A stretch of DNA of 32,000 nt. It comes from Nitrososphaerota archaeon. Lineage in GTDB: Archaea; Thermoproteota; Nitrososphaeria; Nitrososphaerales; UBA57. The stretch spans positions 16,237 to 48,236 of the forward strand of contig VHBL01000006.1 in the NCBI GenBank assembly GCA_016871995.1. Direction: 5' to 3'. Of this stretch, positions 1-30,577 are shown piece by piece; position 1 is the stretch's first letter, and every line of letters starts with the position of its first letter. A program made the position numbers and the translations under genes. Under the pieces are notes generated by a model. That model was not told where the DNA came from and made no database searches. It saw nothing but the letters and a program-made list of their open reading frames with translations.

Positions 1-332
1 TTTCTCTAAGGTTCAAGGACGATTATTCAAAGGTCAAAATTCCGATGATGCCGGTAATAACAAGTAATTCAACGGCGATCAGGGTAATTTCGTTCAGTTC
101 CATACTTCTAGTAGTATTTTCATTGATACCATACGTGCTTGAAATATTTGGGTTGGTGTATCTAGTCAGCGCTGTAGTTCTTGGTGCTGGAATAATCTAT
201 CTTAGCATAAAGTTGCTCTTCCTCCCTACAGAAGAAAGAGCTTGGACGCTTTTTAAGTTCACGAGCCCGTATCTAGCCATAATCTTCGTTGCAATGATGG
301 CCGATGCTGTGCTCAGGTCATCTTCTTTATAG
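1..332 (+). CDS. ctaB: Heme O synthase (protoheme IX farnesyltransferase), C-terminal part; 5' end outside the window
   Basis: Frame 3 is open from the window edge (SLRFKDDYSKVKIPMMPV...). This resembles the conserved Y-x-x-x-x-IPM-x-PV loop of UbiA-family heme O synthases and is followed by about 3 hydrophobic helices. Stop TAG at 330-332. Track ORF 45..332 covers only the part after an internal Met. Confidence 0.7.
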   Translation, partial: SLRFKDDYSKVKIPMMPVITSNSTAIRVISFSSILLVVFSLIPYVLEIFGLVYLVSAVVLGAGIIYLSIKLLFLPTEERAWTLFKFTSPYLAIIFVAMMADAVLRSSSL

Positions 333-636
333 CTTCTCTAAGCTCTTCTAAGCTCTTCCCTTCGACATCGATTCCCAGAGCTCTTGCAGCCTTTTCCAAT
401 TTCTCTCTTTCTTCTTCCGAGTCCTTTTTGCCTAGTTTTTCAGTTTCCTTTGCAGATTCCACCTTACCCTTCTCGAATTCTCCCTTCGCCTTCCCCATAG
501 ATCTTGCAAGTTCTGGTATCTTCTTAGCACCGAAAAGCAGAAGGACGACTATTACGATCAAGAAAACCAGCTCTGTTGATCCTAGACCAGGTATTATCAG
601 GATGTGTGTGTTAGACAACGCAACGAGATATAACAT
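313..636 (-). CDS. tatA: Twin-arginine translocase subunit TatA/E
   Basis: Single TM helix (LVFLIVIVVLLLFG) followed by the TatA hinge and amphipathic helix FGAKKIPELARSMGKAKGEFEKG, then a charged K/E-rich tail. The roughly 19-aa N-terminal extension suggests the true start may be an internal TTG. Confidence 0.8.
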   Translation of the reverse strand: MLYLVALSNTHILIIPGLGSTELVFLIVIVVLLLFGAKKIPELARSMGKAKGEFEKGKVESAKETEKLGKKDSEEEREKLEKAARALGIDVEGKSLEELREAIKKMT

Positions 637-694
637 ACATGTACTTTAGCATTACTAACAAAGAAATTAAAGTACCTTCACACCAGCTGAGCGC

Positions 695-967
695 ATGAGC
701 AAGAAACCTGCGGCTCGAAAGCCGAAGGAAAAAGCAGCTGAAAAGAAACCAAAGATGCAGAAGCCTTCTGCTCCTGCTCCAGTAGCCAAGATTAGCACAT
801 GGGAACTAAAGGAGCGATTCCGTTCGGGGCGTGGTTTTTCAATGCAGGAGCTCAAGGAGGCTAACATCTCTCTGGGCATGGCTAGGAAGTTAGGACTCTA
901 TGTTGACATTAAAAGGTCTACAAAAAGGGAAGAAAACATATCTGCACTGAAATCTTGGCTAAAGTAA
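695..967 (+). CDS. rpl13e: Ribosomal protein L13e (eL13) with a Lys/Ala/Pro-rich N-terminal extension
   Basis: Core SGRGFSMQELKEANISLGMARKLGLYVDIKRSTKREENISALKSWL matches the archaeal L13e pattern (GRGFS..EL...gi....Ar.lGi.vD.RR....EN...L). ATG start. Confidence 0.75.
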   Translation: MSKKPAARKPKEKAAEKKPKMQKPSAPAPVAKISTWELKERFRSGRGFSMQELKEANISLGMARKLGLYVDIKRSTKREENISALKSWLK

Positions 968-1867
968 AGTTCTTGCATAGTGGTAAATGTATTCTTGAGC
1001 ATATCCTGCATATTTACCAAAATAATCCCGCATGGTCTTCGATATTATGTCATAATCTTTGAAACTTAACGAACCTCTATGTCCTAGCTTGCTAAGAAAT
1101 TCTTTGTCGAACAATCTGGCATATTGGTTAACAATAGTCCTGAGTATCCACACATCTATAGGCAAAGCTTCAAGCTTGTCAAGCGAAAATAATAGCACAC
1201 AATCGGCTACTTTCGGACCTATTCCCTTGAAGATTTTCTTTTGCTGGAACTTTCTGAGTAATTCTTCTCTAGCTTCCCCGTAAGTATAAGTGCGGATTTT
1301 GTCGAAGATGGTAACGTCTTTAGCTATGACGTTTGCAGTAGCTTTAATGAACTCCGCCCTATATCCCGCCTTGCAGTCACGTATTGATGCGACGCTAGCC
1401 TTTGCAAGCGTATCTGCACTTGGGAATGTATAGAATTCCTTAGCATCGAATGTCATGCGTTCTCCGAACGTTCTGCAGAGATTATCGAGCATTCTTTCAA
1501 TTTGGGGTATGTTCGTGTTCGTAGCGCAAATGTAGCTCAGCATGCATTCCCATGGATCTTGACGCAGAATTCTAAGACCCCGGTACTTTTGCAGAGCGTG
1601 CGAAACGAACTTATCATGGCTTATTACCCTAGCGATTGATTTCAGGTCATCATCGAAACGGAAGTAGTTCTGGATTCTATCGTGCCAGTCTACTCCACTT
1701 GAGCCTGTAAATTCCAGATGCTCTCCAATCTGCCTGAGTTTTATTGCGCCATTGCCCAAAACACCATGCCAATATTCTCCAATCTTCTTCCAGTGGAATA
1801 CTTGCCCACATTCCAACGAATAATCAAGATTGAATGGTTCTGGAGTCTCAATCTTAGAAACTCGCAT
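959..1867 (-). CDS. ogg: 8-oxoguanine DNA glycosylase / AP lyase (OGG1-type HhH-GPD)
   Basis: HhH-GPD signature KGIGPKVADCVLLFSLDKLEALPIDVW (Lys in GPKVADC, Asp in PIDVW) and an OGG-like N-terminal domain (LECGQVFHW). Lies 2 nt downstream of the sHSP-like gene on the same strand. Confidence 0.85.
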   Translation of the reverse strand: MRVSKIETPEPFNLDYSLECGQVFHWKKIGEYWHGVLGNGAIKLRQIGEHLEFTGSSGVDWHDRIQNYFRFDDDLKSIARVISHDKFVSHALQKYRGLRILRQDPWECMLSYICATNTNIPQIERMLDNLCRTFGERMTFDAKEFYTFPSADTLAKASVASIRDCKAGYRAEFIKATANVIAKDVTIFDKIRTYTYGEAREELLRKFQQKKIFKGIGPKVADCVLLFSLDKLEALPIDVWILRTIVNQYARLFDKEFLSKLGHRGSLSFKDYDIISKTMRDYFGKYAGYAQEYIYHYARTLL

Positions 1868-1869
1868 TG

Positions 1870-2349
1870 CTAGGAATTCTGCTCACTTATCTTCCTAAGC
1901 CTTACGTTTAGTATTCCATTCACACATGTAGAACCTATTATTTCTACGGGATCAGCGAGTTCGATTTCCTTTGCAAAATCGCCTGAACTCTTGACCCTAA
2001 GTTTTCCCTTCTTCAACTCTACCGAGACACTGGAATCTGGTCCGGGAACCTCGGCGACAAAAATAATAGCATCGCTAGTCGGAATAAGATCGTACGTCCA
2101 TCTTCTCTTTTGGTTATCAAATGGATTTGTGTTCTGCCTGAATATCTTCTTAAGTTCGAAAAGCCAGAATATTAACAACGCTCCTGCAAGTGCCGAAAGA
2201 ACAATTGCCAGCAGTCCTCTTTGAAATCTTGTGATAACAACTACGATAACGCCAAGCATAGCTATTCCTGCAACCATTAGTATTGAGTTTAGTACTGTGG
2301 CATAATTGGCCCCTTTTTTATTCACGGTATCCTCCTTTTCCCTTGGCAT
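1870..2349 (-). CDS. Membrane-anchored alpha-crystallin-domain (Hsp20-like) protein
   Basis: Two predicted TM helices (ATVLNSILMVAGIAMLGVIVVVI; LLAIVLSALAGALLIFWLF). They are followed by an ACD-like segment YDLIPTSDAIIFVAEVPGPDSSVSVELKKGKLRVKS...FAKEIELADPVE..GSTCVNGILNVRLRK, which fits the Hsp20 pattern (D..e.ed.i.v.aelPG.....v.v.v.dn.L.i......f.r.i.LP..v......a...nGvL.i.l.K). Confidence 0.65.
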   Translation of the reverse strand: MPREKEDTVNKKGANYATVLNSILMVAGIAMLGVIVVVITRFQRGLLAIVLSALAGALLIFWLFELKKIFRQNTNPFDNQKRRWTYDLIPTSDAIIFVAEVPGPDSSVSVELKKGKLRVKSSGDFAKEIELADPVEIIGSTCVNGILNVRLRKISEQNS

Positions 2350-2572
2350 ACGATACAGACTTTATCACTATTAGAAGTCTTGCACATCATGTGTCCTTAA
2401 TATGATTATGTGCGTTATTCAGACATATTAAGCAAAGATAAACAGTCCACAATTAAAATAGGTGCAGGAATACGGTGAACGGGATACAGCAACTGAACAG
2501 TGTACCTGTTAATTCATTGATGAGTGAAGCCCTCTGACAGATCAGGAGACCGAGCTTTCTAAAGTAATAGGG

Positions 2573-3616
2573 ATGCTGAAGAAGAATGATTCCTACGAAA
2601 TCTTCTCTGTTCAAGCAGGTAAGGTTCTAATGGTTACAGTTCGTGATTTGCTCAACGCCAAGAATCTTTCAACGAGCAGGTTTTCAACCATAGCAGCAGT
2701 CGTACCAAAACTTTCTCCCGATGACAGGCTTGGCAGTGTAGTAAGGATTCTTAGCGAGTACAGAATACGTGCCCTTCCTGTCGTTCAGAAGGGGAAGGTG
2801 GAAGGGGCATTGAAGATTAGGGATATCGTCAAAATGATGCAAGATTCCATGTCTTCCAGCGTTAAGGTATCAGCTATAATGACCCCGAATCCAATAACTA
2901 TTGACTCTGGCGACACTGCTCTGAAGGCCAAGAATTTGATGCTGAGAAGAAAGATAGATCATTTGCCGATAATGAGGAATGGCAAACTTGCAGGCATTGT
3001 GGATTCGGATTCAATCTTATATGCCATAAGGTCTCCTGAAAGGCAGCCTGTGGCGTGGGGTTCTAGTACTTTTGAAATGAAAAGGACGCTGAACTTCCCT
3101 GTAGACGAAATAATGAGTGGTCATGCTCTGGAGGTTGCTCCAAATGATTCACTGCAGAAGCTTATCGCAGAGATGCTCAAGGCGGGGACCAACGCGGCTT
3201 TGGTAACATGGGCTCATGAGCTGCAAGGCATAGTTACGTTCAGGGACGTTGTCAAGATTCTTGCAGAGAAATCGAAACAAGAGCCGCAGGTGTATATTGT
3301 CGGTTTGCCAGACGACCCATTTGAATCTGAGACCGCAAAAACGAAGTTTTCCAGAATAGTGGCAACGCTGTCGAAGAGCATGAGGATAATCGAGGCTAGA
3401 GCCAAGATAAAAATGCAGAAGACTTCAAAAGATAGGGAAAGGCGAAGGTATCAAGTAATGGTTTCGATAGCGACAGTAAATAACATATACAACTTTTCTA
3501 GAGAAGGTTTTCAGCTATCTGATATATTCGATCAGCTGCAGCAGAGCATAAAGCGAATTAATGTAAAAAGGCCGAAGACGAAACCTACTGCACGTAAGAT
3601 GTCTGAAACTGAATAG
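2573..3616 (+). CDS. CBS-domain protein (at least 3 CBS motifs) with an HPF/YfiA-like C-terminal domain (aa ~239-335)
   Basis: CBS motifs include ...RIRALPVVQKGKVEGALKIRDIVKMM, VSAIMTPNPITIDSGDTALKAKNLMLRRKIDHLPIMRNGKLAGIVDSDSILYAI and VDEIMSGHALEVAPNDSLQKLIAEMLKAGTNAALVTWAHELQGIVTFRDVVKIL. For the C-terminal segment see the findings. The CBS call is confident; the HPF-like call is a hypothesis. Confidence 0.8.
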   Translation: MLKKNDSYEIFSVQAGKVLMVTVRDLLNAKNLSTSRFSTIAAVVPKLSPDDRLGSVVRILSEYRIRALPVVQKGKVEGALKIRDIVKMMQDSMSSSVKVSAIMTPNPITIDSGDTALKAKNLMLRRKIDHLPIMRNGKLAGIVDSDSILYAIRSPERQPVAWGSSTFEMKRTLNFPVDEIMSGHALEVAPNDSLQKLIAEMLKAGTNAALVTWAHELQGIVTFRDVVKILAEKSKQEPQVYIVGLPDDPFESETAKTKFSRIVATLSKSMRIIEARAKIKMQKTSKDRERRRYQVMVSIATVNNIYNFSREGFQLSDIFDQLQQSIKRINVKRPKTKPTARKMSETE

Positions 3617-3664
3617 AAATTAGAACCGAAGAGGCTTTATTCAATGGAGTCTATGTCTGCATGA

Positions 3665-5098
3665 TTGAAACTATTACTTTGCATGATGCTAGTATCGTTC
3701 CTCGTTCTTCCTACAGTCTTAGCCCAAGCCAACGATAATTCTCCATACATTGAGGAGTTTCCTGTTCCCAAACCATACCTCGGTCCTCTTGCGATAACCT
3801 ATCACGAAGGAAATATTTGGTTCACTCTTGATGGTTCAAATGCTATAGGCGTTTTTAGCACTAACAACAAATCTTTTAGAATGTACAGTCTACCTTGGCA
3901 GCCGACAAAACAGGCGGCACAGTATGGTATGGAGGGAATTGCTGTTGATAAAGATGGCATGGTTTGGTTCACTCATTCAAGTACATCACGAATAGGTAGA
4001 TTCAATCCGCAATCCCAGATGTTTTCTGGAATAGTTGTAAGGCCCAACGCATCAATATTCAGAGTACTTCCTGACAAGGCTGGTAATATTTGGTACAGCG
4101 ACGTTCAGAATAATAAGATAGGTCTTGTTTCACCCGAAGGTGCAGCAAGAGAATTTGATTTACCAACTGCAAAATCAGGCCCTGCTGGTCTGTTTTTTGA
4201 TTCGTCTGGCAAGTTGTGGTTTACTGAAACCTTTGCAAAGAAGGTAGGAGTGCTAGACATTCAGAGCAGTTCGATAACAGAGTTTCCCGCACCGCGAGAC
4301 TTCATCAACTCTCCTGTAGGCATAGTAGTCGACAACGCTGGCATTGTATGGGTCGCAGACCATGGGGGTGCTGCAATAGTGCGGTTCGATCCTAAAAACA
4401 ATACGTGGAACAAGTTTATCACTTCAAGGCCTCCTCCAGACTTGTTCCCTGTATCCCTTCCAAACGATCTTTTGTTGGACAGGCAGGGTAATATCTGGAT
4501 TACAGAGCATGGTGGGAACAAGATTGCAAGGTTCGACCCCAAAACGAGCCTTCTTACTGAATACCTCATTCCCAGTTTGCCTGCAATAACACTGTGGCTT
4601 ACAATAGATGATGCTGCAAATATATGGTTTGCAGAGGCCGAGGGAGGTAAAATAGGTAAGCTTGATACGAAAAAGCCGGTGCCGTTTACTATATCTATTC
4701 CTGCTGATACCGTTTCTATATCTGCGGGCAAAGAAGCAATCTTCTCTGCAAACGTAGAATCATCGCAAACTATTAACAAAATTTCTATGCTGAGCTATGG
4801 CTTTCCAACTGCGCTAAATGTCACCGCAAAGATCAAGGAACTTCCTGTTCAGCGTGGAGGTTCGCAGACTATTGATTTCTTGGTTAGCATCAGGCACGAA
4901 ATAGATCAGGGGAAATATGGCTTTGCGATCAGTGCGAGCGATGGAAAGGTTCTCCAGACCAGAACCATAACAATCGATGTCGAGGCTTCAAGACCTAATC
5001 AAGACTTGGTTGTCTACACTTCTGTTGGCATTGCAGGTGTGACTATTGCAGCAATAGTAGTGTTCTTACTCGTATTCAGACGCGTATGGAGAAGCTAA
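3665..5098 (+). CDS. Secreted, C-terminally membrane-anchored seven-bladed beta-propeller protein (Vgb / streptogramin-lyase-like repeats) plus an Ig-like stalk
   Basis: TTG start and signal peptide (MKLLLCMMLVSFLVLPTVLAQA). Seven units of about 42 aa of the type P.GI..D..GNIWFTE...NKIGRFDP......EF.lP. These are followed by a beta-rich region and a C-terminal TM helix with basic tail (VGIAGVTIAAIVVFLLVFRRVWRS). Confidence 0.7.
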   Translation: MKLLLCMMLVSFLVLPTVLAQANDNSPYIEEFPVPKPYLGPLAITYHEGNIWFTLDGSNAIGVFSTNNKSFRMYSLPWQPTKQAAQYGMEGIAVDKDGMVWFTHSSTSRIGRFNPQSQMFSGIVVRPNASIFRVLPDKAGNIWYSDVQNNKIGLVSPEGAAREFDLPTAKSGPAGLFFDSSGKLWFTETFAKKVGVLDIQSSSITEFPAPRDFINSPVGIVVDNAGIVWVADHGGAAIVRFDPKNNTWNKFITSRPPPDLFPVSLPNDLLLDRQGNIWITEHGGNKIARFDPKTSLLTEYLIPSLPAITLWLTIDDAANIWFAEAEGGKIGKLDTKKPVPFTISIPADTVSISAGKEAIFSANVESSQTINKISMLSYGFPTALNVTAKIKELPVQRGGSQTIDFLVSIRHEIDQGKYGFAISASDGKVLQTRTITIDVEASRPNQDLVVYTSVGIAGVTIAAIVVFLLVFRRVWRS

Positions 5099-5868
5099 AG
5101 CAGTTTTAGAGTCATCAGTATCCTGTCAAATGATTCTCTTGACCTGCCGTTTTTGTAGTTCCTCAAAACCGCAACAATGTCAGAAACATCAGTAAGCCCA
5201 AGCCTTCTCCTTATTGTTGATGCCACAGGTCCTCCGATGAGAAGGTACTGAGCGGCTGCAGTGACATTTGACACTCTTCGGGTAAGGCTTGCAGTTTCAA
5301 AATCAAGTATGGTTGTCCTATCGCCAACTATCACATGCTTTCGAAGGTTGCTCAACTCGCCATGATCTAGCCTTATAGAATCCAATGCAAAACACTGCTG
5401 CAGTATCTCCCGAATGCGACCTCTCAGCACGCCAGTCGAACCCTTGCCTTGGAGACCCTTGACCCATTGCAAGATATCGGTTCCATCTGCAAGCTCCATA
5501 GCTATTACATTTCTTGACGCTGCAAAGACCGTCGGCCCGACCCCTGCCTTGTTTGCAAGTCCCAGCAGTTGTACTTCCCTAGCAACACTGGGCCTGTTCG
5601 AATCGGTTCTGCGTATCTTCAATACAACCTTTCTCTCAGCTAATAGGGCCTTGACGACTAAGCTTGTGCACCCTTTGCCCAGCACTCGCACATTGCCTAT
5701 CCTGACATTGCCGGAGAATTCCACCTTTTTTACTCCTAAACTTCTGAGCTCGTTTATCCTGCTCTTGCACGTTCGAGAATCTCCTCTAGGGTATGCTAGA
5801 ATGTTATTCCAAGGTTGCTCAGCAAGACCTTCAATCGAAACAAGCGATGACTCTGTTTGTTGAAGCAA
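5095..5868 (-). CDS. RIO-like / atypical serine-threonine protein kinase (COG2112-type)
   Basis: VLGKGCTSLVVKA....VVLKIRR (glycine loop plus Lys), catalytic-loop-like LDHGELSNLRKHVIV, and ILDFETAS (DFG-equivalent). TTG start at 5866-5868 overlaps the cca 3' end by 38 nt. Confidence 0.65.
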   Translation of the reverse strand: MLQQTESSLVSIEGLAEQPWNNILAYPRGDSRTCKSRINELRSLGVKKVEFSGNVRIGNVRVLGKGCTSLVVKALLAERKVVLKIRRTDSNRPSVAREVQLLGLANKAGVGPTVFAASRNVIAMELADGTDILQWVKGLQGKGSTGVLRGRIREILQQCFALDSIRLDHGELSNLRKHVIVGDRTTILDFETASLTRRVSNVTAAAQYLLIGGPVASTIRRRLGLTDVSDIVAVLRNYKNGRSRESFDRILMTLKLL

Positions 5869-7216
5869 TCTCTGCTACGGCCTCCTTCAACCATTTTCTG
5901 CTATTTGCAAATTGCAAAATCTCTTTACCAACAAGTATGCGGTTCGTTGTCCTAACTTCTTCGCGCAGACCTGCGGAGATTCCTGATGATGCGATGCTGG
6001 AGCCTAGAATGAACTCCAGAGTGTCTGCAATATTTAGGAAATCTCTTTTATTCAATGAATGTACCTTTCCGTCCGTGCCTATCCATAGAAGATCTGACCT
6101 CCTTTTGTTTGCTTCAGCGAATTTTATGCTATCTTGGGAGAATGTAGTTTCTGGTCCTGCTCTATCCTTCCTTTGTGAAAGTTCGGTATCTTCTAAAAGG
6201 AACAGAAATGCGCTTTCCTTTTTGTCGCTACTGGCAGATATGCTACGCAACACGTGGAAGTCTTTCTCTGCTAAATGCATTTCAAGATGGTAGAGACTCT
6301 TATTCAGCTGCCCCCAAAGTTTATCGACTGTTCTTTCTTGATGTTTGAAGGTAACTACTACAACATTACCCAGATTCTGACTTTTTAATTGTAGAAGATG
6401 TTTTCGGCTAAAGAAACTTGCGCTTGGCCTCTCGAGGAAGAGGCCCGCACCAAATATGAACTCTGCTACTCTCTGCTTCGAAATAGCAGCTCCAAGATTT
6501 CTTCGGGGGTCTACAGGGTCTAGGATTATTAGCGGAGTGTTGTGTAGATTGGCATATATCTTGTCGCTCTCTGCAGGTACTATACTCTCGCCAAACTTGA
6601 TCGCACGGACGTTTCTCAAAACCTCAAGAAAGCTCCCAAATTTCAGAATCAAAACTTCGGCGACATATCCGCTGAAACCCCGTGTTTTAATTTCTGCACC
6701 ATAAATTCTCAAACCCTTCAGAAAACTCTTAAGCAGTCTAGTTTCTCGTTTCATATCAGCGTTGAATTTCCGCTTTATCAGTTCTGTGTGATATGGAGAC
6801 CTATCGGCAGCACTCTTCCATTCTCCAATTGGGACATCATAGCAAGCAACAATATTGGTCTTAATTCCTTCAACCCAAGCCTCAACGTACGGATGTTCAG
6901 AATAACGGAGATATGGAGAATACCCATGCAGCGCCTGCTTGCCTATTTCTATACCAAGTTTACCAAGCTCAGCCTTGTTTAGATCTGGTGGGACCTTTAC
7001 GAATATATCAATGTCAGCGTCCCCAGCAACCCATGTTCCTTTAGCAAAGGATCCTGCAAGCAAAGGTGTAATCTGCATCTTTTTGTTCTTGCTGGCGTTT
7101 TGAACCCTCCGCATAAGATGTTTTGTTATTTTGGCTATTCTTTCCTCTTCCTGTTTGGATGGTTCAGAGCGCTTTATTTGAGCTGCGATTATCTTTGCGA
7201 GAGTAGCCTGCGACAA
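5831..7216 (-). CDS. cca: CCA-adding enzyme (class I archaeal tRNA nucleotidyltransferase)
   Basis: Class-I nucleotidyltransferase motif LLAGSFAKGTWVAGDADIDIFV, and the size (461 aa) is typical. TTG start 2 nt after the thpR stop. Consistent with the tRNA in this window lacking an encoded CCA. Confidence 0.9.
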   Translation of the reverse strand: MSQATLAKIIAAQIKRSEPSKQEEERIAKITKHLMRRVQNASKNKKMQITPLLAGSFAKGTWVAGDADIDIFVKVPPDLNKAELGKLGIEIGKQALHGYSPYLRYSEHPYVEAWVEGIKTNIVACYDVPIGEWKSAADRSPYHTELIKRKFNADMKRETRLLKSFLKGLRIYGAEIKTRGFSGYVAEVLILKFGSFLEVLRNVRAIKFGESIVPAESDKIYANLHNTPLIILDPVDPRRNLGAAISKQRVAEFIFGAGLFLERPSASFFSRKHLLQLKSQNLGNVVVVTFKHQERTVDKLWGQLNKSLYHLEMHLAEKDFHVLRSISASSDKKESAFLFLLEDTELSQRKDRAGPETTFSQDSIKFAEANKRRSDLLWIGTDGKVHSLNKRDFLNIADTLEFILGSSIASSGISAGLREEVRTTNRILVGKEILQFANSRKWLKEAVAEIASTNRVIACFD

Positions 7217-14462: not shown

Positions 14463-15281
14463 TTGAATTCTGAAGAAAGTACAAATGAGATTGTCATGAA
14501 GAGAGCACTCAGGCAGGTATTCAAGCATGAGAAGGAGAACCGCTTCCTGACTAGAAGATCTGAAGATTTTCAGGTCATTGAAGAGGTCTTTGACAAGCCT
14601 ACATTAATGACTCTCTATTCCATGATGAATTCTGGATTTTTTGCACACCTAAACGGCGTAGTAGGTTCTGGAAAGGAATCGAGGGTGTACTGGGGTGTCA
14701 GTAATGTGGGTAAGGACGTTGCAGTGAAGATTTACCTTATGGTTTCTGCAGACTACAAGAAAAGAACACTCTACATTTCTGGTGATCCTCGATTCAGAAC
14801 TACGAAACGTTGGTCGCATAGATTGGTGGAAATCTGGGCTCAGAAAGAATTTAGAAATCTTAAAACTGCATTTGTAAATAGCGTAAGAGTTCCAAGGCCT
14901 ATTGCCGTCAGAAGAAATATCTTGGTTACAGAGTTCATTGGGGAGAGGGGAAAACCTCCACCATTGCTTGCAGAAAGTGAGGTTACTAAATCTGACTACA
15001 AGAGCATCATTGAAATGATCACAAAGCTGTACAGGAAGGCGAAGTTAGTCCATGCAGACTTGTCGGAGTTTAATATATTCAAGGGAAGAGAGCTCGTTAT
15101 ATTCGATATGGGCTCTTCTGTCGATGTGCGACATCCTATGAGTCGAGAATTCTTGACACGGGATTTAACCAACATTAACCGTTTCTTTTCTAAAAACAGA
15201 ATACCTATAGTCCCGCTGGATGATCTTGTTAAGGAGATTGTTGGAGATGAGCTTTCGTCAATCAATTCGAGTCCCGTCTGA
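14463..15281 (+). CDS. rio1: RIO-type serine/threonine protein kinase Rio1
   Basis: EEVFDKPTLMTL, nucleotide loop GSGKESRVYWG, catalytic HADLSEFN, metal-binding IFDMGSSV. Start is TTG 14463 or ATG 14496. Confidence 0.9.
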   Translation: MNSEESTNEIVMKRALRQVFKHEKENRFLTRRSEDFQVIEEVFDKPTLMTLYSMMNSGFFAHLNGVVGSGKESRVYWGVSNVGKDVAVKIYLMVSADYKKRTLYISGDPRFRTTKRWSHRLVEIWAQKEFRNLKTAFVNSVRVPRPIAVRRNILVTEFIGERGKPPPLLAESEVTKSDYKSIIEMITKLYRKAKLVHADLSEFNIFKGRELVIFDMGSSVDVRHPMSREFLTRDLTNINRFFSKNRIPIVPLDDLVKEIVGDELSSINSSPV

Positions 15282-15816
15282 CAGGCTTGGTGCACTGGTC
15301 GGCAAACAGGGTAAGGTGAGGAAGTGGGTAGAAGAGATTTGCTCAGTAAAATTGGAGATAAACAGCGACTCTGGAGAGGTTAACGTAATTTCAGGTGCAG
15401 ATTTGGAGAAATCTGATCCTTTAAAGGCTGTTCAGATTGTCAATGCGATTGCCAAAGGTTTCTCTCCTGAAAGGTCTGCAAGGCTGCTGAAAGAGGATAA
15501 TTTGCTCGACATTATGGATCTCACTGCCTATGCTGGGAAGTCAAGGAATTCGATCGAACGCATTAAAGGGAGAGTTATTGGGTATCGGGGGAAGGCAAGG
15601 AGAGTAATCGAGGAATTGACAGGAACTTATGTTTCGGTTTATGGACATACCGTCGCTGTGATAGGAACTTCGAACCAGATCAGGCAAATGCAAGAAGCGT
15701 TAGATATGCTAGTTTCGGGAAGCCCCCACAAGGCGGTTTATTCGATGCTACAAAGAAAACGATCTCAAGCAAAGCTTGAAAGGCTAAAACTGTGGGAGGA
15801 GAGCCCGATTGGTTAG
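15247..15816 (+). CDS. KH-domain RNA-binding protein (Dim2/Pno1-like, COG1094)
   Basis: Two KH GxxG loops (LVGKQGKVRKWVEE; VIGYRGKARRVIEE). The likely ATG at 15247 overlaps the rio1 3' end. The Rio1-KH pairing is a conserved archaeal neighbourhood. Confidence 0.8.
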   Translation: MSFRQSIRVPSDRLGALVGKQGKVRKWVEEICSVKLEINSDSGEVNVISGADLEKSDPLKAVQIVNAIAKGFSPERSARLLKEDNLLDIMDLTAYAGKSRNSIERIKGRVIGYRGKARRVIEELTGTYVSVYGHTVAVIGTSNQIRQMQEALDMLVSGSPHKAVYSMLQRKRSQAKLERLKLWEESPIG

Positions 15817-17416
15817 CGCGCAAGTTTCTTTCAGCGAAATTTCTCCCAGTGAATTCTTCTATCGGAACAGAGACCTTGCTGGGTTCAGCAATCCTGCTAG
15901 GGCCCTATACATGGCTACGAGGGAATTGGTTGAGAATTCGCTGGATGCATGCGAAACTGGAGGCGTCTTACCTGATCTGTATACAAGGATAACTCCCCTA
16001 GATCCTAATGCAGAGGCTGCAGACCCCAGAGCTTACGTACTCAAGGTGCAAGATAATGGCCCCGGCATAGAACCCAAACATGCTCCAAACGCCTTCGGAA
16101 GGGTATTCTACGGTTCGAAGTTCAAACTAAGACAGGCAAGAGGAATGTTTGGTATGGGCGGCACTATGGCCATACTTTACGGCCAGATTACTACAAACAA
16201 ACCTGTTAAGATTACAACATCCATTGATGGCAAGAAGTTCTATTCTTTCACAATGCTTATTGATATTCAGGAAAACAAGCCCAATATACTTTCGCAAGAA
16301 ACCATTGAAGGTGATGGGCACACTGGAACTTCTGTTGAAATTATCCTTCAGGGAGATTTTCTTCGCTCCTCGCAGAAGATCGCCGATTATTTCAGGCAGA
16401 CAGCACTTGTGAACCCGTATGCAAATATAACTTATGTCGATCCCACTGGAAGGCTATCATCCTATGCAAAAGCTACTGAAACCATGCCAACTCCCCCACA
16501 GGAAACTGAACCACATCCTCACGGAATTGACGTTGAAGCCATGCGCAGGCTGCTTAGACAATCGGAGAAGAAGACATTGCTGAAACTGCTTGTTGAAGAT
16601 TTTCATAGAGTAGGAGAAAGGACTGCCATCAAGTTCCTTGAGTTCGCTAAGATTACTCCACAAATAGAGCCGAAGGCGCTGAACAATGAAGATATAGTCA
16701 AAATTGTGGACGCTATGCACAAGTTCGCTGAATTCCTTGCCCCCGATGCGAGCTGTCTTTCGCCATTGGGCGAGGAGATACTCAAGGCAGGTATTCAGAA
16801 GGAGCTCCAACCAGAGTTTCTGGCTACGGAGATAAGACCGCCATCTGCGTATTCTGGCTTTCCTTTCATAGTTGAAGTTGGGCTTGCCTATGGAGGTAAG
16901 TTCCTGCAAGAGGGGAAAAGACTGTTCAGGTTTGCCAACAGAATCCCATTGCTGTACGATGAGGCTAATGATGTTGCATGGAAGGTTCTAAACGAAGAGA
17001 TAGACTGGAGGAACTACAAGATACCTGAAAACGCTCCTATTGCTATTATAACTCACATCTGTTCGACAAAGGTTCCGTACAAGACCGTTGGGAAAGAATA
17101 CCTTGCAGACAGGCCAGAGCTAGAGAGGGAGCTGAAGAATGCGACAAGGGAAGTTCTGCGTCAGCTCAAGACCTACCTTTCAAGAAAGGGTTCTATGGAA
17201 ATGGTCAAGAGGAAAATGAACATTTACGGCAAGTATCTTCCTTTGATAGCAAGATTTGCGCAAGAGCTTTCTCAGGCCAGCAGACCCCCACGTTATCGAG
17301 CTTTGTTGGGAGAGCATACACGTGACGAAAAAACCGAAGTGCTAGGAGAGAGTCAAGTAGAGCAGGCGCAAGAAGAGGAGAAGCAAAGTAAACTTGAAGA
17401 ATTCGCAAACGTCTAA
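15809..17416 (+). CDS. top6B: DNA topoisomerase VI subunit B
   Basis: ISPSEFFYRNRDLAGF N-terminus and GHKL/Bergerat motifs ELVENSLDA and DNGPGI. 535 aa. TTG start overlaps the KH gene end. Confidence 0.92.
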   Translation: MVSAQVSFSEISPSEFFYRNRDLAGFSNPARALYMATRELVENSLDACETGGVLPDLYTRITPLDPNAEAADPRAYVLKVQDNGPGIEPKHAPNAFGRVFYGSKFKLRQARGMFGMGGTMAILYGQITTNKPVKITTSIDGKKFYSFTMLIDIQENKPNILSQETIEGDGHTGTSVEIILQGDFLRSSQKIADYFRQTALVNPYANITYVDPTGRLSSYAKATETMPTPPQETEPHPHGIDVEAMRRLLRQSEKKTLLKLLVEDFHRVGERTAIKFLEFAKITPQIEPKALNNEDIVKIVDAMHKFAEFLAPDASCLSPLGEEILKAGIQKELQPEFLATEIRPPSAYSGFPFIVEVGLAYGGKFLQEGKRLFRFANRIPLLYDEANDVAWKVLNEEIDWRNYKIPENAPIAIITHICSTKVPYKTVGKEYLADRPELERELKNATREVLRQLKTYLSRKGSMEMVKRKMNIYGKYLPLIARFAQELSQASRPPRYRALLGEHTRDEKTEVLGESQVEQAQEEEKQSKLEEFANV

Positions 17417-18720: not shown

Positions 18721-18766
18721 CTTCCTATACTAGCGTGTATACTAAATTATTTCAGCAGTGATTATC

Positions 18767-20581
18767 ATGGTTCACCGTATCGCCGTTTTGGACAAGGAAA
18801 GCTGTCATTCAAGGAAGTGTCAGCAAGAGTGCATGAGGTTCTGCCCAGTCAACCTTGATGGTAGCGAATGCATAGTCCTTGGTGCTGATGCAAAGGCTGT
18901 AATCAGCGAAGAACTGTGCACTGGATGCGGTATATGCATCAAGAAGTGCCCTTTTGATGCCATAACAATACTGAACATAGCGGAGGAGATAGGGGAAGAC
19001 AAAATCCACCAGTATGGCATAAACACATTTAGGCTCTACAGACTTCCAACGCCAAGAAAAGGTTGCGTAGTTGGATTAGTTGGAAAGAACGGTGTAGGCA
19101 AGACAACAACATTGAACATACTTTCTGGGATGCAGAAGCCTAACCTTGGGAACTATGAAAATCCACCAGACTGGGACATAATACTCGGCGCTTTCAGCGG
19201 CACAGAATTAAGATCGCATTTAGAAAAAATCTCTCAGAACCAGCTTAGGGTTTCTCTAAAACCACAGGCGATTTATAGAATTAGAGAGTTCTGGAAGGGT
19301 GACGCATCATCGCTTTTGAAGAAGATGGACGGAAAGGGAGCATACTCAGACCTTGTCCAGGGCTTGAACTTGAAGAAGTGTATCGGCAAGAACGTTTCAG
19401 ATCTTAGCGGCGGAGAACTGCAGAGGCTGGGTGTGGCAATAACAGCTGCAAAGGAAGCCGATTTATACCTCTTTGACGAACCATCATCCTACAACGACGT
19501 CTTCCAGAGACTTGCGGTAGCTAAAGTCATCCATAGTCTGGCAGGGGCTGGCAAAGCCGTAATAGTTGTAGAACATGATTTAACATTTCTAGATTACCTT
19601 AGCGAAAGCATACACCTACTCTATGGAGAAGCAGGCGTATACGGGATAGCTTCAAGAGTACTGCCCGCAAGGACGGGTATCAACGTATTGCTTGACGGAT
19701 ATATCCCTGCTGAAAATGTCAGGTTTAGAGATCATAAGGTCAACTTTGATGTCTTCGCTCCAGTAGGAGAGGAAACCACTTTCCCTGAAATAGCCAGGTA
19801 TGAAGAATTGACGAAGAAATATACAGGCTTCACTCTGAAGGTTCACGCTGGTTCGATAAAGCAGGGGCAAGTTATAGGCATAATCGGTGCAAATGCACTC
19901 GGTAAGACAACTTATCTGAAGATGTTAGCAGGGGTAGAAAAGCCTGATAGTGGAAACATATTCAGTGGTGCCAGAATATCTTACAAGCCACAGTACCTTT
20001 CGTCTGATTACGATGGAGACGTAAGGACATTCCTCTGGAGTGTAGGAGGAGACAAAATCGACGATGCAACTTTTCAATCCGCTCTGATTCAGCCACTTTT
20101 GATACACAAACTATACGAGAAGAACGTGAAGAACCTTAGCGGAGGAGAACTGCAGAAGGTTGCCATACTGAGCTGCTTGATGCAGGATGTAGACATTTAT
20201 GCCTTGGATGAACCCTCAGCGTTCATCGATGTTGAAGACAGGCTCACCTTTGCCAGAGCGATTCAAAAGTTCGTAAAGTCGCAGGGCAAGACCGCTCTTA
20301 TCGTCGACCATGACATTCAGATGATAGACATAATTTCTGATTCTCTGATGATTTTTGCGGGGGCCTCTGGAGAATCTGGTTCCGCATCTGCCCCGCAAGC
20401 AAAGGAGGACGGGATGAACAGTTTCCTGAAATCTCTTGGCATAACTTACAGGAGGGATATTGAAACTGGGAGACCAAGGGTGAACAAACCTGGCAGCAAG
20501 CTCGACAGGGAGCAGAAGGATATGGGAAGGTACTACTATCTTGCAAGAATAGTTGAAGAGGAAAGGCCTGAAACCCTTTGA
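18767..20581 (+). CDS. abce1: ABCE1 / RNase L inhibitor-type ribosome-recycling ATPase
   Basis: N-terminal FeS cluster cysteines (CHSRKCQQECMRFCP; CTGCGICIKKCP). Two Walker A motifs (GLVGKNGVGKTT, GIIGANALGKTT) and two signatures (LSGGELQR, LSGGELQK). Likely ATG at 18767; the track starts at GTG 18758. Confidence 0.95.
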   Translation: MVHRIAVLDKESCHSRKCQQECMRFCPVNLDGSECIVLGADAKAVISEELCTGCGICIKKCPFDAITILNIAEEIGEDKIHQYGINTFRLYRLPTPRKGCVVGLVGKNGVGKTTTLNILSGMQKPNLGNYENPPDWDIILGAFSGTELRSHLEKISQNQLRVSLKPQAIYRIREFWKGDASSLLKKMDGKGAYSDLVQGLNLKKCIGKNVSDLSGGELQRLGVAITAAKEADLYLFDEPSSYNDVFQRLAVAKVIHSLAGAGKAVIVVEHDLTFLDYLSESIHLLYGEAGVYGIASRVLPARTGINVLLDGYIPAENVRFRDHKVNFDVFAPVGEETTFPEIARYEELTKKYTGFTLKVHAGSIKQGQVIGIIGANALGKTTYLKMLAGVEKPDSGNIFSGARISYKPQYLSSDYDGDVRTFLWSVGGDKIDDATFQSALIQPLLIHKLYEKNVKNLSGGELQKVAILSCLMQDVDIYALDEPSAFIDVEDRLTFARAIQKFVKSQGKTALIVDHDIQMIDIISDSLMIFAGASGESGSASAPQAKEDGMNSFLKSLGITYRRDIETGRPRVNKPGSKLDREQKDMGRYYYLARIVEEERPETL

Positions 20582-20583
20582 GG

Positions 20584-21411
20584 ATGCTTAAGCAGGCACT
20601 TTCAAACTTATTATCAGAAAGCGAACTAAGCGAACTTTATTCAGGTTTCGATATTGTAGGCGACATAGCGATAATCAAAATTCCAGATTCTTTACGGGTC
20701 AAAAAGAAACTAATCGGACCCATAATTCTTCAGAAGCTAAAACCAGTTAAGGTCGTTCTGATGCAGAGTGGCCCTGTGTCTGGCGAATATAGGATTCGCA
20801 AACTCGAACATCTGGCAGGTGAAGAAAGGACATCAACAATATACAAAGAGCATAGTTGCACATTCTTGGTCGATGTCACGAAGGCGTACTTCTCTCCAAG
20901 ACTCTCTACTGAAAGGCTCAGGATTGCAAAACTAGTAAAAGAGGGAGAAAGAGTTCTGAATATGTTTGCTGGGATTGGAATTTATTCGATCATTATCGCA
21001 AAAGTGCAACTAGAATGCGAGGTTATTAGCGTAGAAATCAACCCAGATGCGCACAGGAGCGCAGTCGAGAACACAAGGCTCAACAAAGTCAGCCAGAAAG
21101 TTAAGCCTATAGCAGGTGATGCAAGAGAGATTATCAAAAGTGACAATATTGGTAAGTTTGATCGGGTGTTGATGCCATTGCCAGAAAACGCCTCTGAATT
21201 CATTGGGGATGCAATTTCAGCTCTGAAACCTGCAGGTGGGTGGATCCATTACTACTGCCATACACAAGCTAAAGATAAAGAAGATGCAATCAGCAATTCA
21301 GAAAGAGAATTGTTAGAGAGGTTGCAGGGCAGGGGTAAGATAAATTATATGAAAGTTGTGCGGGAAGTGGGACCAAGATGGTTCCAAGTAGTGGTTGACA
21401 TAAAGTTCTGA
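20584..21411 (+). CDS. trm5: tRNA (guanine(37)-N1)-methyltransferase Trm5 / Taw2 family (Met-10+ like)
   Basis: FDIVGDIAIIKIP, SPRLSTER and the SAM motif LNMFAGIGIYS. ATG at 20584, immediately after the abce1 stop. Confidence 0.8.
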   Translation: MLKQALSNLLSESELSELYSGFDIVGDIAIIKIPDSLRVKKKLIGPIILQKLKPVKVVLMQSGPVSGEYRIRKLEHLAGEERTSTIYKEHSCTFLVDVTKAYFSPRLSTERLRIAKLVKEGERVLNMFAGIGIYSIIIAKVQLECEVISVEINPDAHRSAVENTRLNKVSQKVKPIAGDAREIIKSDNIGKFDRVLMPLPENASEFIGDAISALKPAGGWIHYYCHTQAKDKEDAISNSERELLERLQGRGKINYMKVVREVGPRWFQVVVDIKF

Positions 21412-24745: not shown

Positions 24746-25882
24746 CTAGACTTTCAGCAGGGTCTCCGACGCTTGTGGAACTATCAGTGCCTTGGTTCGA
24801 GAACCCTTCGAAGAAAGTAAGTGGTTCAGGGCATCACTAGCCTTTTTTGCGCTTTTTAACCCGAACTTACTCTCAATATAGTAATTTGGTAAAGTCGACA
24901 CGAGAATCAGCTCATGAGCCTTTGCAATCTCTTGCAGGAATACTAAGTCTTCGATACCTTCGATATATTTGCCCAATCGCGGAAGGTTTGCGGAATCTAA
25001 CCTTCCTGTTCCGTAAAGCTTGAACGCATCTACACCCAAACCTTCACCACACTCCGCAAGAAGTACGACGGTACTCTTATCGCGTAACCCTTTTAAAATA
25101 TTCCAGAACGACTTGACGCTAGAAGAGAGGGTTTCACTTGCCCTGTTACTGCCAGGACTGATAATCGCTGCTCTCGCCTTCTCTGCAACAGTCTTTGTGG
25201 ACAGTGCTAGAAACTTTTCTTCTGCCTTCTTTTGACTGTCCAGCATATCTCCTATCTCAACATCGTTAATGTCCTCTTGCGAAGGCACAACGGATATCGA
25301 CAAAACATCTGTTAGTTGGTTCGCGTTTTCCCAGACCATTTTCGACGCTTCCGTATAAGTGCCTACGGAAGGTTCCAGAATCGGGTAGGTGAGAAACGAG
25401 TTTCCAATGACCAGGCTCTCTATAGCCCGCAGAATCGAAATGAGACCTCCTGAGAACCCAAACAATCCATCAAATCCAACTTGGGAGAGCAGTATTTTGG
25501 TCGTAGCCTCTCCATAAACTTCTGAAATTGGCTTACCTTCTGCAACTTGTGCTGTAGAAACTCTAAACGGTAATGCTTCCAACTTCTTCCTTACAGAAGT
25601 AACGCTTCTGTGTGGCACTAAGAACTGAATATCTGCACTATTGTAATTTTTTTCGAGTAACATCTTTCCCACAATCGCAGCTGCTTTCAAACAGGGTTCA
25701 TAGTCATCTGCGACTAAGATTCCAACTTTACCTGCGAAGTTAATTTGCGATAATTTCTGCTTGGTTTCATCCTCAGTAATTGGACGTACTGCTTTTTCTA
25801 TGCTTTCAAGGATGTTCTCTATCCGTATGTCTATGGCGACCTCTACAGACCCGTAAGGAACCCAGATTTCTGGCAACCGCAC
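24746..25882 (-). CDS. LarA-like (DUF2088, lactate-racemase-fold) protein, apparently non-canonical
   Basis: N-terminal VPYGSVEVAIDI, KVGILVADDYEP, and GFDGLFGFSGG paralleling the LarA H-F-F-A-G-F-S-G-G-R-K region. GTG start. Confidence 0.5.
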   Translation of the reverse strand: MRLPEIWVPYGSVEVAIDIRIENILESIEKAVRPITEDETKQKLSQINFAGKVGILVADDYEPCLKAAAIVGKMLLEKNYNSADIQFLVPHRSVTSVRKKLEALPFRVSTAQVAEGKPISEVYGEATTKILLSQVGFDGLFGFSGGLISILRAIESLVIGNSFLTYPILEPSVGTYTEASKMVWENANQLTDVLSISVVPSQEDINDVEIGDMLDSQKKAEEKFLALSTKTVAEKARAAIISPGSNRASETLSSSVKSFWNILKGLRDKSTVVLLAECGEGLGVDAFKLYGTGRLDSANLPRLGKYIEGIEDLVFLQEIAKAHELILVSTLPNYYIESKFGLKSAKKASDALNHLLSSKGSRTKALIVPQASETLLKV

Positions 25883-29448: not shown

Positions 29449-29549
29449 CGCCGGGGGTGGGATTTGAACCCACGAGGCCCTTGCGGGCCACAGGCTTACA
29501 AGCTAGGAAGTTTCCAGGCCTGCGCCCTACCAGGCTAGGCGACCCCGGC
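29449..29549 (-). tRNA. tRNA-Ser (anticodon GGA) with a ~15-nt intron in the anticodon loop; CCA not encoded
   Basis: Minus strand: GCCGGGG-TC-GCC..GG..GGC-G-CAGGC-CTGGAA[ACTTCCTAGCTTGTA]A-GCCTG-T-GGCCC-GCAA-GGGCC-TC-GTGGG-TTCAAAT-CCCAC-CCCCGGC-G. Acceptor, T-arm (TTCAAAT loop), anticodon stem and a long variable arm all pair perfectly. A type II tRNA with G73 and a CU-GGA-AA loop indicates Ser. Confidence 0.9.
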
Positions 29550-29590: not shown

Positions 29591-30577
29591 TTAATTGGAA
29601 GCCTCTTCCTTTGGCTTGCTCTTCCACATCTTGGGGTATGTACCTTGCTTCATTATTACCCTGTTAGGCTCAGCAGCTATGCCTTTCTGCTGAGATCTTA
29701 TTTCGTCAGAACTCATTGAAGCTTCAGCAAGTGCTACGATCTCTCCCTTCAAAGTGTAAAACCCGACTGTGTCCCCCTTTTTTATATTACCAGAAACCTT
29801 CAGAATTCCAGGTATTGCAAGTTTGGCTCCATTGCATACCGCTTCTACAGCTGAATCCCTGATTACAACGCTTGGGATTGCCTGCATCCCATACTCTATT
29901 GACAGTATCAGTTTCTTCAATTTGCTTTCATCGCCTTTCTGATATTCGTAGTATGCATCAGCAAGGTCATGCAATCTGACAAGCCTATTCTGTTCACTCA
30001 AGTTGCTCACCCTCGTCCTCCTCAATTCGACCATGGTCGCACCGCAGCCGAAGACTTCGCCCATGTCGTAGACCAATTTCCTGATGTAAGTTCCAGACTC
30101 GCACAGAACCCTTAAGATCAGCAACCTTCCCTGCTGCTCAAGCAGTTCAAGCTCGTAGATCGTCCTTGTCCTAGTTACCCTCTTTACGGAAGACCTTTGG
30201 GGAGGCTTCTGAAAGATTTCTCCAGTAAATTCCTTGATCACCCTTTTTAGACTTCCGTCGTCAACTGGATCGTGCAGCCTTGCAACGGCAACGTACTCTT
30301 TTGAGCCCAGCAGCAATACGGAAAGGGCCTTCGTAGCTTCTCCCAAGCCTATTGGGAGCAGACCAGTTGCAGGAGGATCGAGAGTTCCGCTATGACCTGC
30401 CTTTTTGACATTAAGAATTCTCCTTACCCAAGCAACCACTTCATGACTTGTAGGGCCCTCAGTCTTGTCGAGGGGTATGAGCCCATAATCCAAGAGCTGC
30501 TTTACGCTTCTGTTCTGAGGTGCGCACCCATATTTTGGGTTGGTATCTTCGTGTGCTATTTCTATCAGGTTAGACAA
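29591..30577 (-). CDS. cbf5: tRNA/rRNA pseudouridine synthase Cbf5 (H/ACA RNP catalytic subunit)
   Basis: TruB motif II HSGTLDPPATGLLPI (catalytic Asp), a C-terminal PUA-like domain (KKGDTVGFYTLKGEIVALAEA), and a basic tail. Confidence 0.92.
   Translation of the reverse strand: MSNLIEIAHEDTNPKYGCAPQNRSVKQLLDYGLIPLDKTEGPTSHEVVAWVRRILNVKKAGHSGTLDPPATGLLPIGLGEATKALSVLLLGSKEYVAVARLHDPVDDGSLKRVIKEFTGEIFQKPPQRSSVKRVTRTRTIYELELLEQQGRLLILRVLCESGTYIRKLVYDMGEVFGCGATMVELRRTRVSNLSEQNRLVRLHDLADAYYEYQKGDESKLKKLILSIEYGMQAIPSVVIRDSAVEAVCNGAKLAIPGILKVSGNIKKGDTVGFYTLKGEIVALAEASMSSDEIRSQQKGIAAEPNRVIMKQGTYPKMWKSKPKEEASN

Follow-up and report, generated by a model that had tools for sequence, protein, structure and literature searches.

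The locus described here raises the question of whether an archaeal gene that joins CBS sensor domains to a domain resembling the bacterial HPF/RaiA proteins encodes a ribosome hibernation factor, and of what such a gene may still do once its 5' end has been damaged. The gene lies at 2573..3616 (+) in a 32,000-nt stretch of contig VHBL01000006.1 of a Nitrososphaerota archaeon (contig positions 16,237 to 48,236), hereafter the window. The original prediction, made from the nucleotide sequence alone, had read its product as a CBS sensor of adenosyl ligands fused to an HPF/YfiA-like hibernation factor domain, and this reading is supported by a fold test and by a collinear match to the Pyrococcus abyssi factor HibA. 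In our view, with a probability of about 0.85, the window gene is orthologous to the family of archaeal ribosome hibernation factors known as HibA in Pyrococcus and Thermococcus and as AHA in Haloferax.

The inference drawn from sequence was correct, as three groups established the CBS-HPF hibernation factor of archaea experimentally in 2025-2026. The accompanying remark that a characterised archaeal CBS-HPF fusion is not known is outdated, since such fusions were published in those years as Hib/HibA and AHA. The fusion is now a published and widespread family, and the novelty of the window gene is therefore low. What the window holds is a slightly damaged member of a divergent subfamily. Because its first ~30 residues have been lost through a start-codon loss and a frameshift, the function of this truncated copy in its host is less certain than that of its relatives.

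Architecture and assignment to HibA/AHA

The open reading frame (ORF) begins at the first available ATG and comprises 347 codons and a stop. Its translation is exactly the one quoted in the earlier reading, and the part singled out there, 3287..3616, corresponds to residues 239-347 and the stop codon, that is, the C-terminal domain and its tail. The gene is laid out as follows.

2573..3616, + strand: gene of the HibA/AHA family in its present form (ORF, family profile match, dN/dS)
2573..2662, + strand: CBS1 remnant, aa 1-30, with beta2-beta3-alpha2 left (AlphaFold2 strands 9-14 and 17-22, helix 23-28; N-terminal alignment to full-length relatives)
2693..2845, + strand: CBS2, aa ~41-91 (Pfam CBS stretches; AlphaFold2 helix 53-62, strands 67-72 and 75-81, helix 82-89)
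2867..3031, + strand: CBS3, aa 99-153 (best Pfam CBS stretch; family-invariant D129, P132, G141, S145)
3032..3100, + strand: extended loop past CBS3, aa 154-176, SPERQPVAWGSSTFEMKRTLNFP (AlphaFold2 model of low confidence at 156-162; profile alignment to HibA)
3101..3268, + strand: CBS4, aa 177-232 (invariant E216, G219, I220, D225; near-invariant T222, R224)
3287..3565, + strand: C-terminal domain of predicted HPF fold (AlphaFold2 models, Foldseek, weak PF02482 and S. aureus HPF sequence signals)
3566..3613, + strand: disordered basic tail, aa 332-347, KRPKTKPTARKMSETE (predicted local distance difference test score, pLDDT, <50 over 332-347)

The Pfam scan found three CBS stretches in the protein (E 5.2e-29; the best at aa 99-153), in agreement with the "about three CBS motifs" noted before, and the NCBIfam scan gave just CBS-type partial matches, weak and to many CBS proteins including HhpR. 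The full-length AlphaFold2 model, computed with a 58-sequence homolog alignment (A1), had a mean pLDDT of 84.3, and the fold of its N-terminal module matched CBS tetrads at E 1e-15. CBS2 to CBS4 are complete in the window, CBS1 lacks beta1-alpha1, and the relatives have four CBS motifs; half of CBS1 was lost secondarily from a gene that is orthologous to theirs, and the architecture is not a different one. Residues G219 to D225 of CBS4 make a G-h-h-T-x-R-D motif, and the motif residues of CBS3 and CBS4 (D129, S145, T222, R224, D225) are invariant or nearly so across 58 relatives. The CBS3/CBS4 region, where the nucleotide site of HibA and AHA lies and where the putative site of the window protein would be, is intact. 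The 23 residues of the loop at 154-176 align, by family profile, with HibA ~190-207, the position of the loop that reaches the peptidyl-transferase centre (PTC). The two parts of the protein have predicted isoelectric points (pI) of 9.7 and 10.3, the latter for the C-terminal part. Since the architectural elements, with CBS1 as a remnant, and the CBS3/CBS4 motif residues are present, we file the window protein as a HibA/AHA ortholog.

Comparisons with proteins of known structure point in the same direction. Among PDB sequences, the window protein alone matched best with 9L96 chain a (E 2.9e-15) and also matched 9SR9 chain H (E 4.2e-9); its residues 160-342 align with 208-388 of 9L96 chain a, and thus across the C-terminal domain. 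The family profile built from A1, compared with the whole PDB, had P. abyssi HibA (9SR9 chain H) as its top match at E 1.5e-32, with profile positions 8-362 collinear with residues 5-373 in a single alignment spanning both domains. The second match was 9L96 chain a (E 5.2e-32), and both outranked the CBS-only Sri proteins, MJ1225 and AMPK-gamma. Chain a of 9L96, 9L98, 9L9C and 9L9V is a 406-aa "CBS domain-containing protein" that is probably AHA; our literature search did not find the source paper for these four entries.

For the C-terminal domain, AlphaFold2 predicted a strand (239-243), a helix (249-267), three strands (272-283, 291-301 and 305-312) and a final helix (315-331), a layout that includes a basic ERRRY hairpin and the subfamily motif YIVGLPDDPFE. 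A model of the domain alone (aa 236-347; alignment A2 of 34 sequences; pLDDT 78.8) had the same topology as in the full-length model. When this model was compared with the PDB by Foldseek, the best 25 matches were all HPF/RaiA/pY/PSRP1 hibernation factors, at E 8e-7 to 1e-3 and template-modelling (TM) scores of 0.55-0.63 over ~100 columns. The best was chloroplast pY 6ERI chain BV (E 8.3e-7), and the others included chloroplast pY 5MMJ chain y (E 2e-6), Borrelia HPF 8FMW chain W (E 1.2e-5), M. smegmatis 5ZEP chain x (E 2e-5), E. coli HPF 2RQL (E 1.5e-4, TM 0.59/0.68, root-mean-square deviation (rmsd) 2.7 A) and V. cholerae HPF 4HEI. Other folds (LptE, double-stranded-RNA-binding domains (dsRBDs), COMM domains) appeared from rank 26 down, at E >=1e-3 and with lower TM-scores. 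In these models, the resemblance to HPF/RaiA is far above chance at the fold level. The HPF/RaiA-like layout proposed for this domain was thus recovered by structure prediction, and structural matches to the S30AE/HPF fold were found; the corresponding HMMER/Pfam sequence match stayed below threshold.

Several observations weigh against the assignment, most of them at the sequence level. No match to PF02482 (Ribosomal_S30AE) was obtained by Pfam in the C-terminal 116 aa of the window protein even at E up to 10, and the sole Pfam/NCBIfam matches there were chance-level ones to BORCS8/DUF6304. When the A2 profile of 34 C-terminal domains was compared with PDB sequences by HMMER, it aligned with S. 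aureus HPF over almost its full length, at E 0.17-0.78, and the C-terminal domains of HibA (9SR9) and 9L96 were not recovered. Profile alignments with hhalign gave P 0.006-0.064 over all C-terminal comparisons: those with E. coli HPF, RaiA and a 16-sequence enterobacterial alignment (P 0.006-0.021) were in the correct register and not significant, and the same holds for those with the HibA and 9L96 C-terminal sequences, which were taken from HMMER output. It is important to consider that the HPF/RaiA templates were of low diversity (effective number of sequences, Neff, <=1.85), as the homologs gathered with E. coli HPF were close enterobacterial sequences only, at least 76% identical, and gave no diverse template. 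Overall, none of the sequence-level tests connects the C-terminal domain at a significant level with bacterial HPF or with its counterparts in HibA/AHA. In addition, half of CBS1 is missing from the window protein, inspection of the region before ATG 2573 revealed no obvious Shine-Dalgarno sequence or leaderless start, and little of the protein, or none at all, may be produced.

There are weak sequence signals on the other side. PF02482 was matched by 8 of the 34 relatives, all under the gathering score (best E 1.3e-3), and was the sole Pfam family to recur among them, with any other family found in at most two relatives. The sequence likeness of the C-terminal domain to HPF would therefore seem consistent yet sub-threshold. 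Consequently, as no significant link was found at this level, the HibA/AHA assignment rests on fold, architecture and the homology of the CBS module.

Lesions at the 5' end and their meaning

The relatives of the window gene start ~30 residues earlier, with the pattern MQ(E/Q)L..(M)S(D/E)xLLxDPETELSKVIG(M)LKK, and 63 of 66 related genomic loci retain this extension unbroken and in frame over 30 codons or more. In the window, two features precede ATG 2573.

2452..2464, + strand: A/T-rich, TATA-box-like element ATTAAAATAGGTG (identical in the window and in the related loci L010, L011 and L012)
2484..2572, + strand: remnant of the ancestral 5' coding sequence, ~30 codons, beta1-alpha1 of CBS1 (three-frame translation, alignment to relatives)

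The first of these, ATTAAAATAGGTG, precedes the ancestral start codon by ~20-30 nt, and this spacing suggests that the original mRNA was leaderless or had a short leader. The remnant itself carries two lesions, both within the first 17 codons. The ancestral start ATG has become ATA at 2484-2486, and the loss of one base between 2533 and 2534 gives rise to a TGA at 2535-2537 (window GCC CT-C TGA CAG vs GCT/GTT CTG CTG/CTA ACA/GTA in the closest relatives). Past the deletion, it is the called ORF's frame that carries on the conserved peptide (..LTDQETELSKVIG-M), where the relatives read MQQLNSVPINSLMSDVLLVDPETELSKVIG. Nine independent assemblies, which stem from separate sequencing runs and JGI samples, share the lesion and are identical over 1264 nt.

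Two other accounts of the interrupted frame were considered and rejected. An assembly error was dismissed because the nine assemblies, from different runs and samples, are identical. Programmed frameshifting at GCC CUC UGA was dismissed because the site has no slippery heptamer and the ancestral ATG is also mutated; a prfB-like +1 shift there would lead into a frame that stops after 8 codons, and the conserved frame needs a -1 shift.

The ORF that remains is conserved. The dN/dS of the retained ORF against its closest relatives is 0.08-0.09, and the changes specific to the window lineage (36 synonymous, 7 nonsynonymous) are in nearly the same proportion as those of the intact sister (35.7 and 7.3). 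The retained 347 codons are under strong purifying selection. Furthermore, the 89-nt remnant has accumulated no excess of substitutions, with 7 in the window lineage and 7 in the sister. From the selection on the ORF and the lack of an excess in the remnant, it follows that the lesions are very recent or that a protein is used from ATG 2573.

These lesions give weight to the one competing explanation that deserves serious discussion. It is possible, although at somewhat worse than even odds, that the HibA ortholog has just been inactivated and is now a young pseudogene, in a lineage that is losing its hibernation factor, as reported for planktonic Nitrosopumilaceae, a family without any identifiable factor according to the HibA paper (PMC13324472). 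The presence of two independent lesions so close to the start, their fixation in all nine assemblies, the retention of the extension by nearly all relatives, and the loss of the presumed leaderless start with no evident ribosome-binding site to replace it are in line with inactivation. However, the remaining 1044 nt are free of stops and frameshifts, the ratio of synonymous to nonsynonymous changes is that of the intact sister, and the remnant has not begun to diverge faster. Thus, an inactivation would have to be very recent, or else the truncated protein is in use, and an in-frame ATG does stand just past the lesion.

Within the preferred assignment to HibA/AHA, we tentatively propose that the 347-aa form may be a functional derived HibA variant translated from the internal ATG, or else the first step of factor loss; this proposal is held at somewhat worse than even odds. 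The lake population of Thaumarchaeota in which the truncated form is fixed is a natural one, and the damaged first Bateman module might alter docking to the large subunit or regulation. Alternatively, the window may capture the first step of the loss of hibernation factors that has been reported for planktonic Nitrososphaeria. A natural population in which the start and 30 residues have just been lost, and the rest is under purifying selection, could help to show which portion of the CBS disc is required by HibA.

Other assignments, distribution and neighbourhood

Two further assignments of the protein were considered, and both are very improbable. The first is a generic CBS-domain regulator with an unrelated alpha/beta C-terminal domain and no role on the ribosome, such as an HhpR-like transcription regulator or one with a module of dsRBD-like or ferredoxin-like type. 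Pfam, NCBIfam and HMMER at curated thresholds would allow it, as they give no S30AE/HPF for the C-terminal domain, and so would the weak partial NCBIfam matches to CBS proteins such as HhpR. Nevertheless, hibernation factors occupy all of the best 25 structural ranks, with dsRBDs and the like only behind them; PF02482 is the only family that recurs among the relatives; the best PDB sequence matches are two CBS+HPF proteins bound to the ribosome; and HhpR-type (CM-3) proteins have no C-terminal domain (PMC13324472). Membership in one of the CBS-only hibernation families (SriA-D/ARC-A/P or Dri) instead of HibA/AHA is hardly to be expected either: the CBS module does match the Methanosarcina acetivorans Sri proteins 9ZNF chain 5 (3e-28) and 9ZNG chain 7 (2.5e-25) and, by fold, Dri 9E6Q chain 3, but the Sri and Dri matches end where the CBS module ends, HibA and 9L96 score above them, Sri/ARC carry short occlusion elements and Dri two CBS tetrads, none with an HPF domain, and the window protein has the predicted HPF fold.

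Within HibA/AHA, the window copy belongs to a Bathyarchaeia/Nitrososphaeria subfamily marked by the YIVGLPDDP motif. A homology search (E up to 1e-5) returned 244 homologs of matching length and architecture, almost all of them 360-400 aa long and with CBS annotation only; their named sources are Thaumarchaeota/Nitrososphaerota, Nitrosocaldus and Bathyarchaeia metagenome-assembled genomes (MAGs). One relative had been named by JGI [quoted passage not shown]. When species-representative genomes were scanned for the motif [YF][IM]VGLP[DE]DP, 88 loci were confirmed; the 80 best are listed, and their hosts are Bathyarchaeia, Nitrososphaerales, Nitrosocaldus, Gagatemarchaeum and unclassified Thaumarchaeota. 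Among the matches listed, the nearest is 76% identical and carries the label "uncultured Nitrosopumilales archaeon". The locus documents a compact, sequence-divergent HibA subfamily common to Bathyarchaeia and Nitrososphaeria, which is annotated just as "CBS domain-containing protein" because PF02482 and NCBIfam miss it.

An exhaustive HMMER search with the C-terminal profile retrieved 173 cluster representatives (50% identity; E up to 1e-3) among 1.84 billion, comprising full-length fusions and short proteins of 113-145 aa that consist of the HPF-like domain alone. Ten of the short ones (P0121, P0134, P0142, P0148, P0151, P0167, P0180, P0196, P0198 and P0215), which score E 1e-17 to 1e-40 against the C-terminal profile, are candidates for standalone HPF/RaiA-like factors in archaea. 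PF02482 matched only one of these ten (E 0.038; 15.1 bits, with a cut-off of 23.7). The C-terminal domain evolves fast: the profile fails to reach the Pyrococcus or haloarchaeal C-terminal domains, in line with the remark of the HibA authors on the domain's "small size and fast evolution" (PMC13324472).

Two full-length relatives, L052 (DATIYC010000034.1) and L071 (DATKOK010000102.1), lie on MAG contigs labelled Candidatus Acidiferrales and Methylomirabilota, and these bacterial labels could reflect a binning error or horizontal transfer. The 84-kb Nitrososphaerales contig CBDAOC010000013.1 has two copies with identical N-terminal sequence near both of its ends (L044 and L045; ranges 1-6928 and 51683-58684), which could represent a duplication or the overlap of a circular or repeated assembly.

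In the original prediction, the hibA-like gene was described as divergent from a "membrane sHSP / Ogg" stress-type operon. The Ogg gene was confirmed (OGG_N, 1.2e-21). The membrane sHSP was not, as its HSP20 match is below threshold, and on sequence grounds the label is plausible for the following feature.

1870-2349, - strand: divergent 159-aa membrane protein with N-terminal hydrophobic helices (C-terminal HSP20/alpha-crystallin match at E 0.063, below threshold)

A 151-aa counterpart of this protein is syntenic in the close relatives L010 and L012. Downstream of the hibA-like gene lies a gene for a secreted or anchored Vgb-lyase/NHL beta-propeller, and the Ogg, small membrane protein and beta-propeller neighbours are all syntenic in close relatives. 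An operonic or functional link between them and the hibA-like gene was considered and rejected, as nothing ties Ogg, the membrane protein or the beta-propeller to translation.

The rest of the window contains archaeal housekeeping genes, namely those for L13e, CCA-adding enzyme, LigT, Rio1, a KH/Pno1-like protein, Topo VI A/B and ABCE1, and further for Trm5/Tyw2, DNA ligase, TBP, GGR and Cbf5. It is rich in genes for translation and ribosome biogenesis (L13e, CCA-adding enzyme, Rio1 kinase, KH/Pno1-like, ABCE1, Trm5/Tyw2 and Cbf5, in regions 695-967, 5831-7216, 14463-15816, 18758-21411 and 29591-30577), none of which adjoins the hibA-like gene or is co-oriented with it. At 29449-29549 (-), Rfam gave a tRNA match of 47 bits covering the full model (1-71) over 101 nt, which is probably an intron-containing archaeal tRNA; ARAGORN found no tRNA anywhere in the window. 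An ORF of 378 aa at 24746-25882 (-) had no Pfam match better than E 0.036.

Comparison with characterised hibernation factors

HibA (P. abyssi PAB0961, UniProt Q9UYR4; Thermococcus TK1186) was described by Madru et al. (Nat Commun 2026, PMC13324472; preprint 10.1101/2025.10.11.676729), with P. abyssi 70S-HibA structures 9SR9-9SRF and 9T7H. By cryo-electron microscopy (cryo-EM), its C-terminal domain occupies the small (30S) subunit's mRNA/tRNA channel; its CBS module takes three positions on the 50S subunit, and its PTC loop, formed by residues 190-207, is wrapped around A2834, a base conserved universally (PMC13324472). Isothermal titration calorimetry of HibA-CM gave dissociation constants (Kd) of 12 uM for AMP, 65 uM for ADP and 113 uM for ATP, and GTP and GMP were unbound. 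AMP or ATP left the distribution of ribosome-bound HibA states unchanged in vitro, and the authors state that a direct role of nucleotides in release cannot be concluded (PMC13324472). AHA (AMPKgamma-HPF from Archaea; Haloferax volcanii HVO_2384; Souza et al., bioRxiv 2026, PMC12934967) has the same architecture, with two AMP molecules at the CBS3/CBS4 junction in cryo-EM, a CBS3 "loop 3" inserted in the PTC, and a C-terminal domain homologous to HPF by HHpred/Foldseek.

Both proteins bind AMP and obstruct the mRNA/tRNA channel on the 30S side as well as the peptidyl-transferase centre on the 50S side, and knockouts in T. barophilus (HibA) and H. volcanii (AHA) recover more slowly from stationary phase and are depleted of ribosomes (PMC13324472; PMC12934967). 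The HibA family is present in 47% of 4026 archaeal genomes, and standalone HPF/RaiA-like proteins have been reported in Nitrososphaerales and DPANN (PMC13324472). The AHA survey counted 3160 homologs in 2723 of 6968 species and mentions a few bacterial AHA-like sequences (PMC12934967).

For the window gene, the mechanism is inferred by homology, as it has been shown experimentally for the characterised members only. By analogy with HibA and AHA, the C-terminal HPF-fold domain would be expected in the 30S decoding channel, the N-terminal CBS disc would dock onto the large subunit, and the long loop past CBS3 would extend into the peptidyl-transferase centre. These contacts combined would hold an idle 70S ribosome, silence it and shield it from degradation. 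The CBS3/CBS4 pair would bind AMP, ADP or ATP and may tune engagement or release; the energy-charge gating that this implies is a reasonable hypothesis, shared by both the HibA and AHA papers. The window copy would at best be translated from the internal ATG, without its first ~30 residues and half of CBS1.

In comparison with HibA, the window protein keeps the CBS3/CBS4 motifs at which the former binds AMP/ATP. The two differ in that their identity is only ~20-25% (a rough estimate, not a computed value), their C-terminal domains have no detectable likeness by sequence comparison, the window subfamily has its own YIVGLPDDPFE and ERRRYEV motifs, and the window copy lacks ~30 N-terminal residues. 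Their hosts also differ, as the window comes from a mesophilic lineage of Thaumarchaeota/Nitrososphaeria type represented by MAGs only, whereas the hosts of HibA are hyperthermophiles. With AHA, the window protein shares the fusion of a CBS module, its own CBS1 being truncated, to a domain of predicted HPF fold and a loop after or in CBS3 at the position of the PTC loop. In contrast, haloarchaeal AHA is acidic and both parts of the window protein are basic.

The bacterial and plastid factors HPF, RaiA (YfiA, protein Y) and PSRP1 have the same fold and topology as the model of the C-terminal domain (TM 0.55-0.63, rmsd ~3 A over ~100 residues). The window domain differs from them by scoring under the Pfam PF02482 gathering threshold, by a longer beta2-beta3 hairpin, and by its fusion to a CBS module, whereas the bacterial domain is standalone or joined to the dimerisation domain of long HPF; 100S dimerisation by the window protein is not expected. 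The standalone archaeal HPF/RaiA-like proteins have the HPF-like domain only, whereas the window gene has both modules. Finally, the N-terminal module of the window protein has structural neighbours in the CBS tetrads of Sri and Dri; the CBS-only factors (SriA-D, ARC-A/P and Dri) have the CBS module without HPF, and the window protein adds to it a ~95-residue domain of predicted HPF fold.

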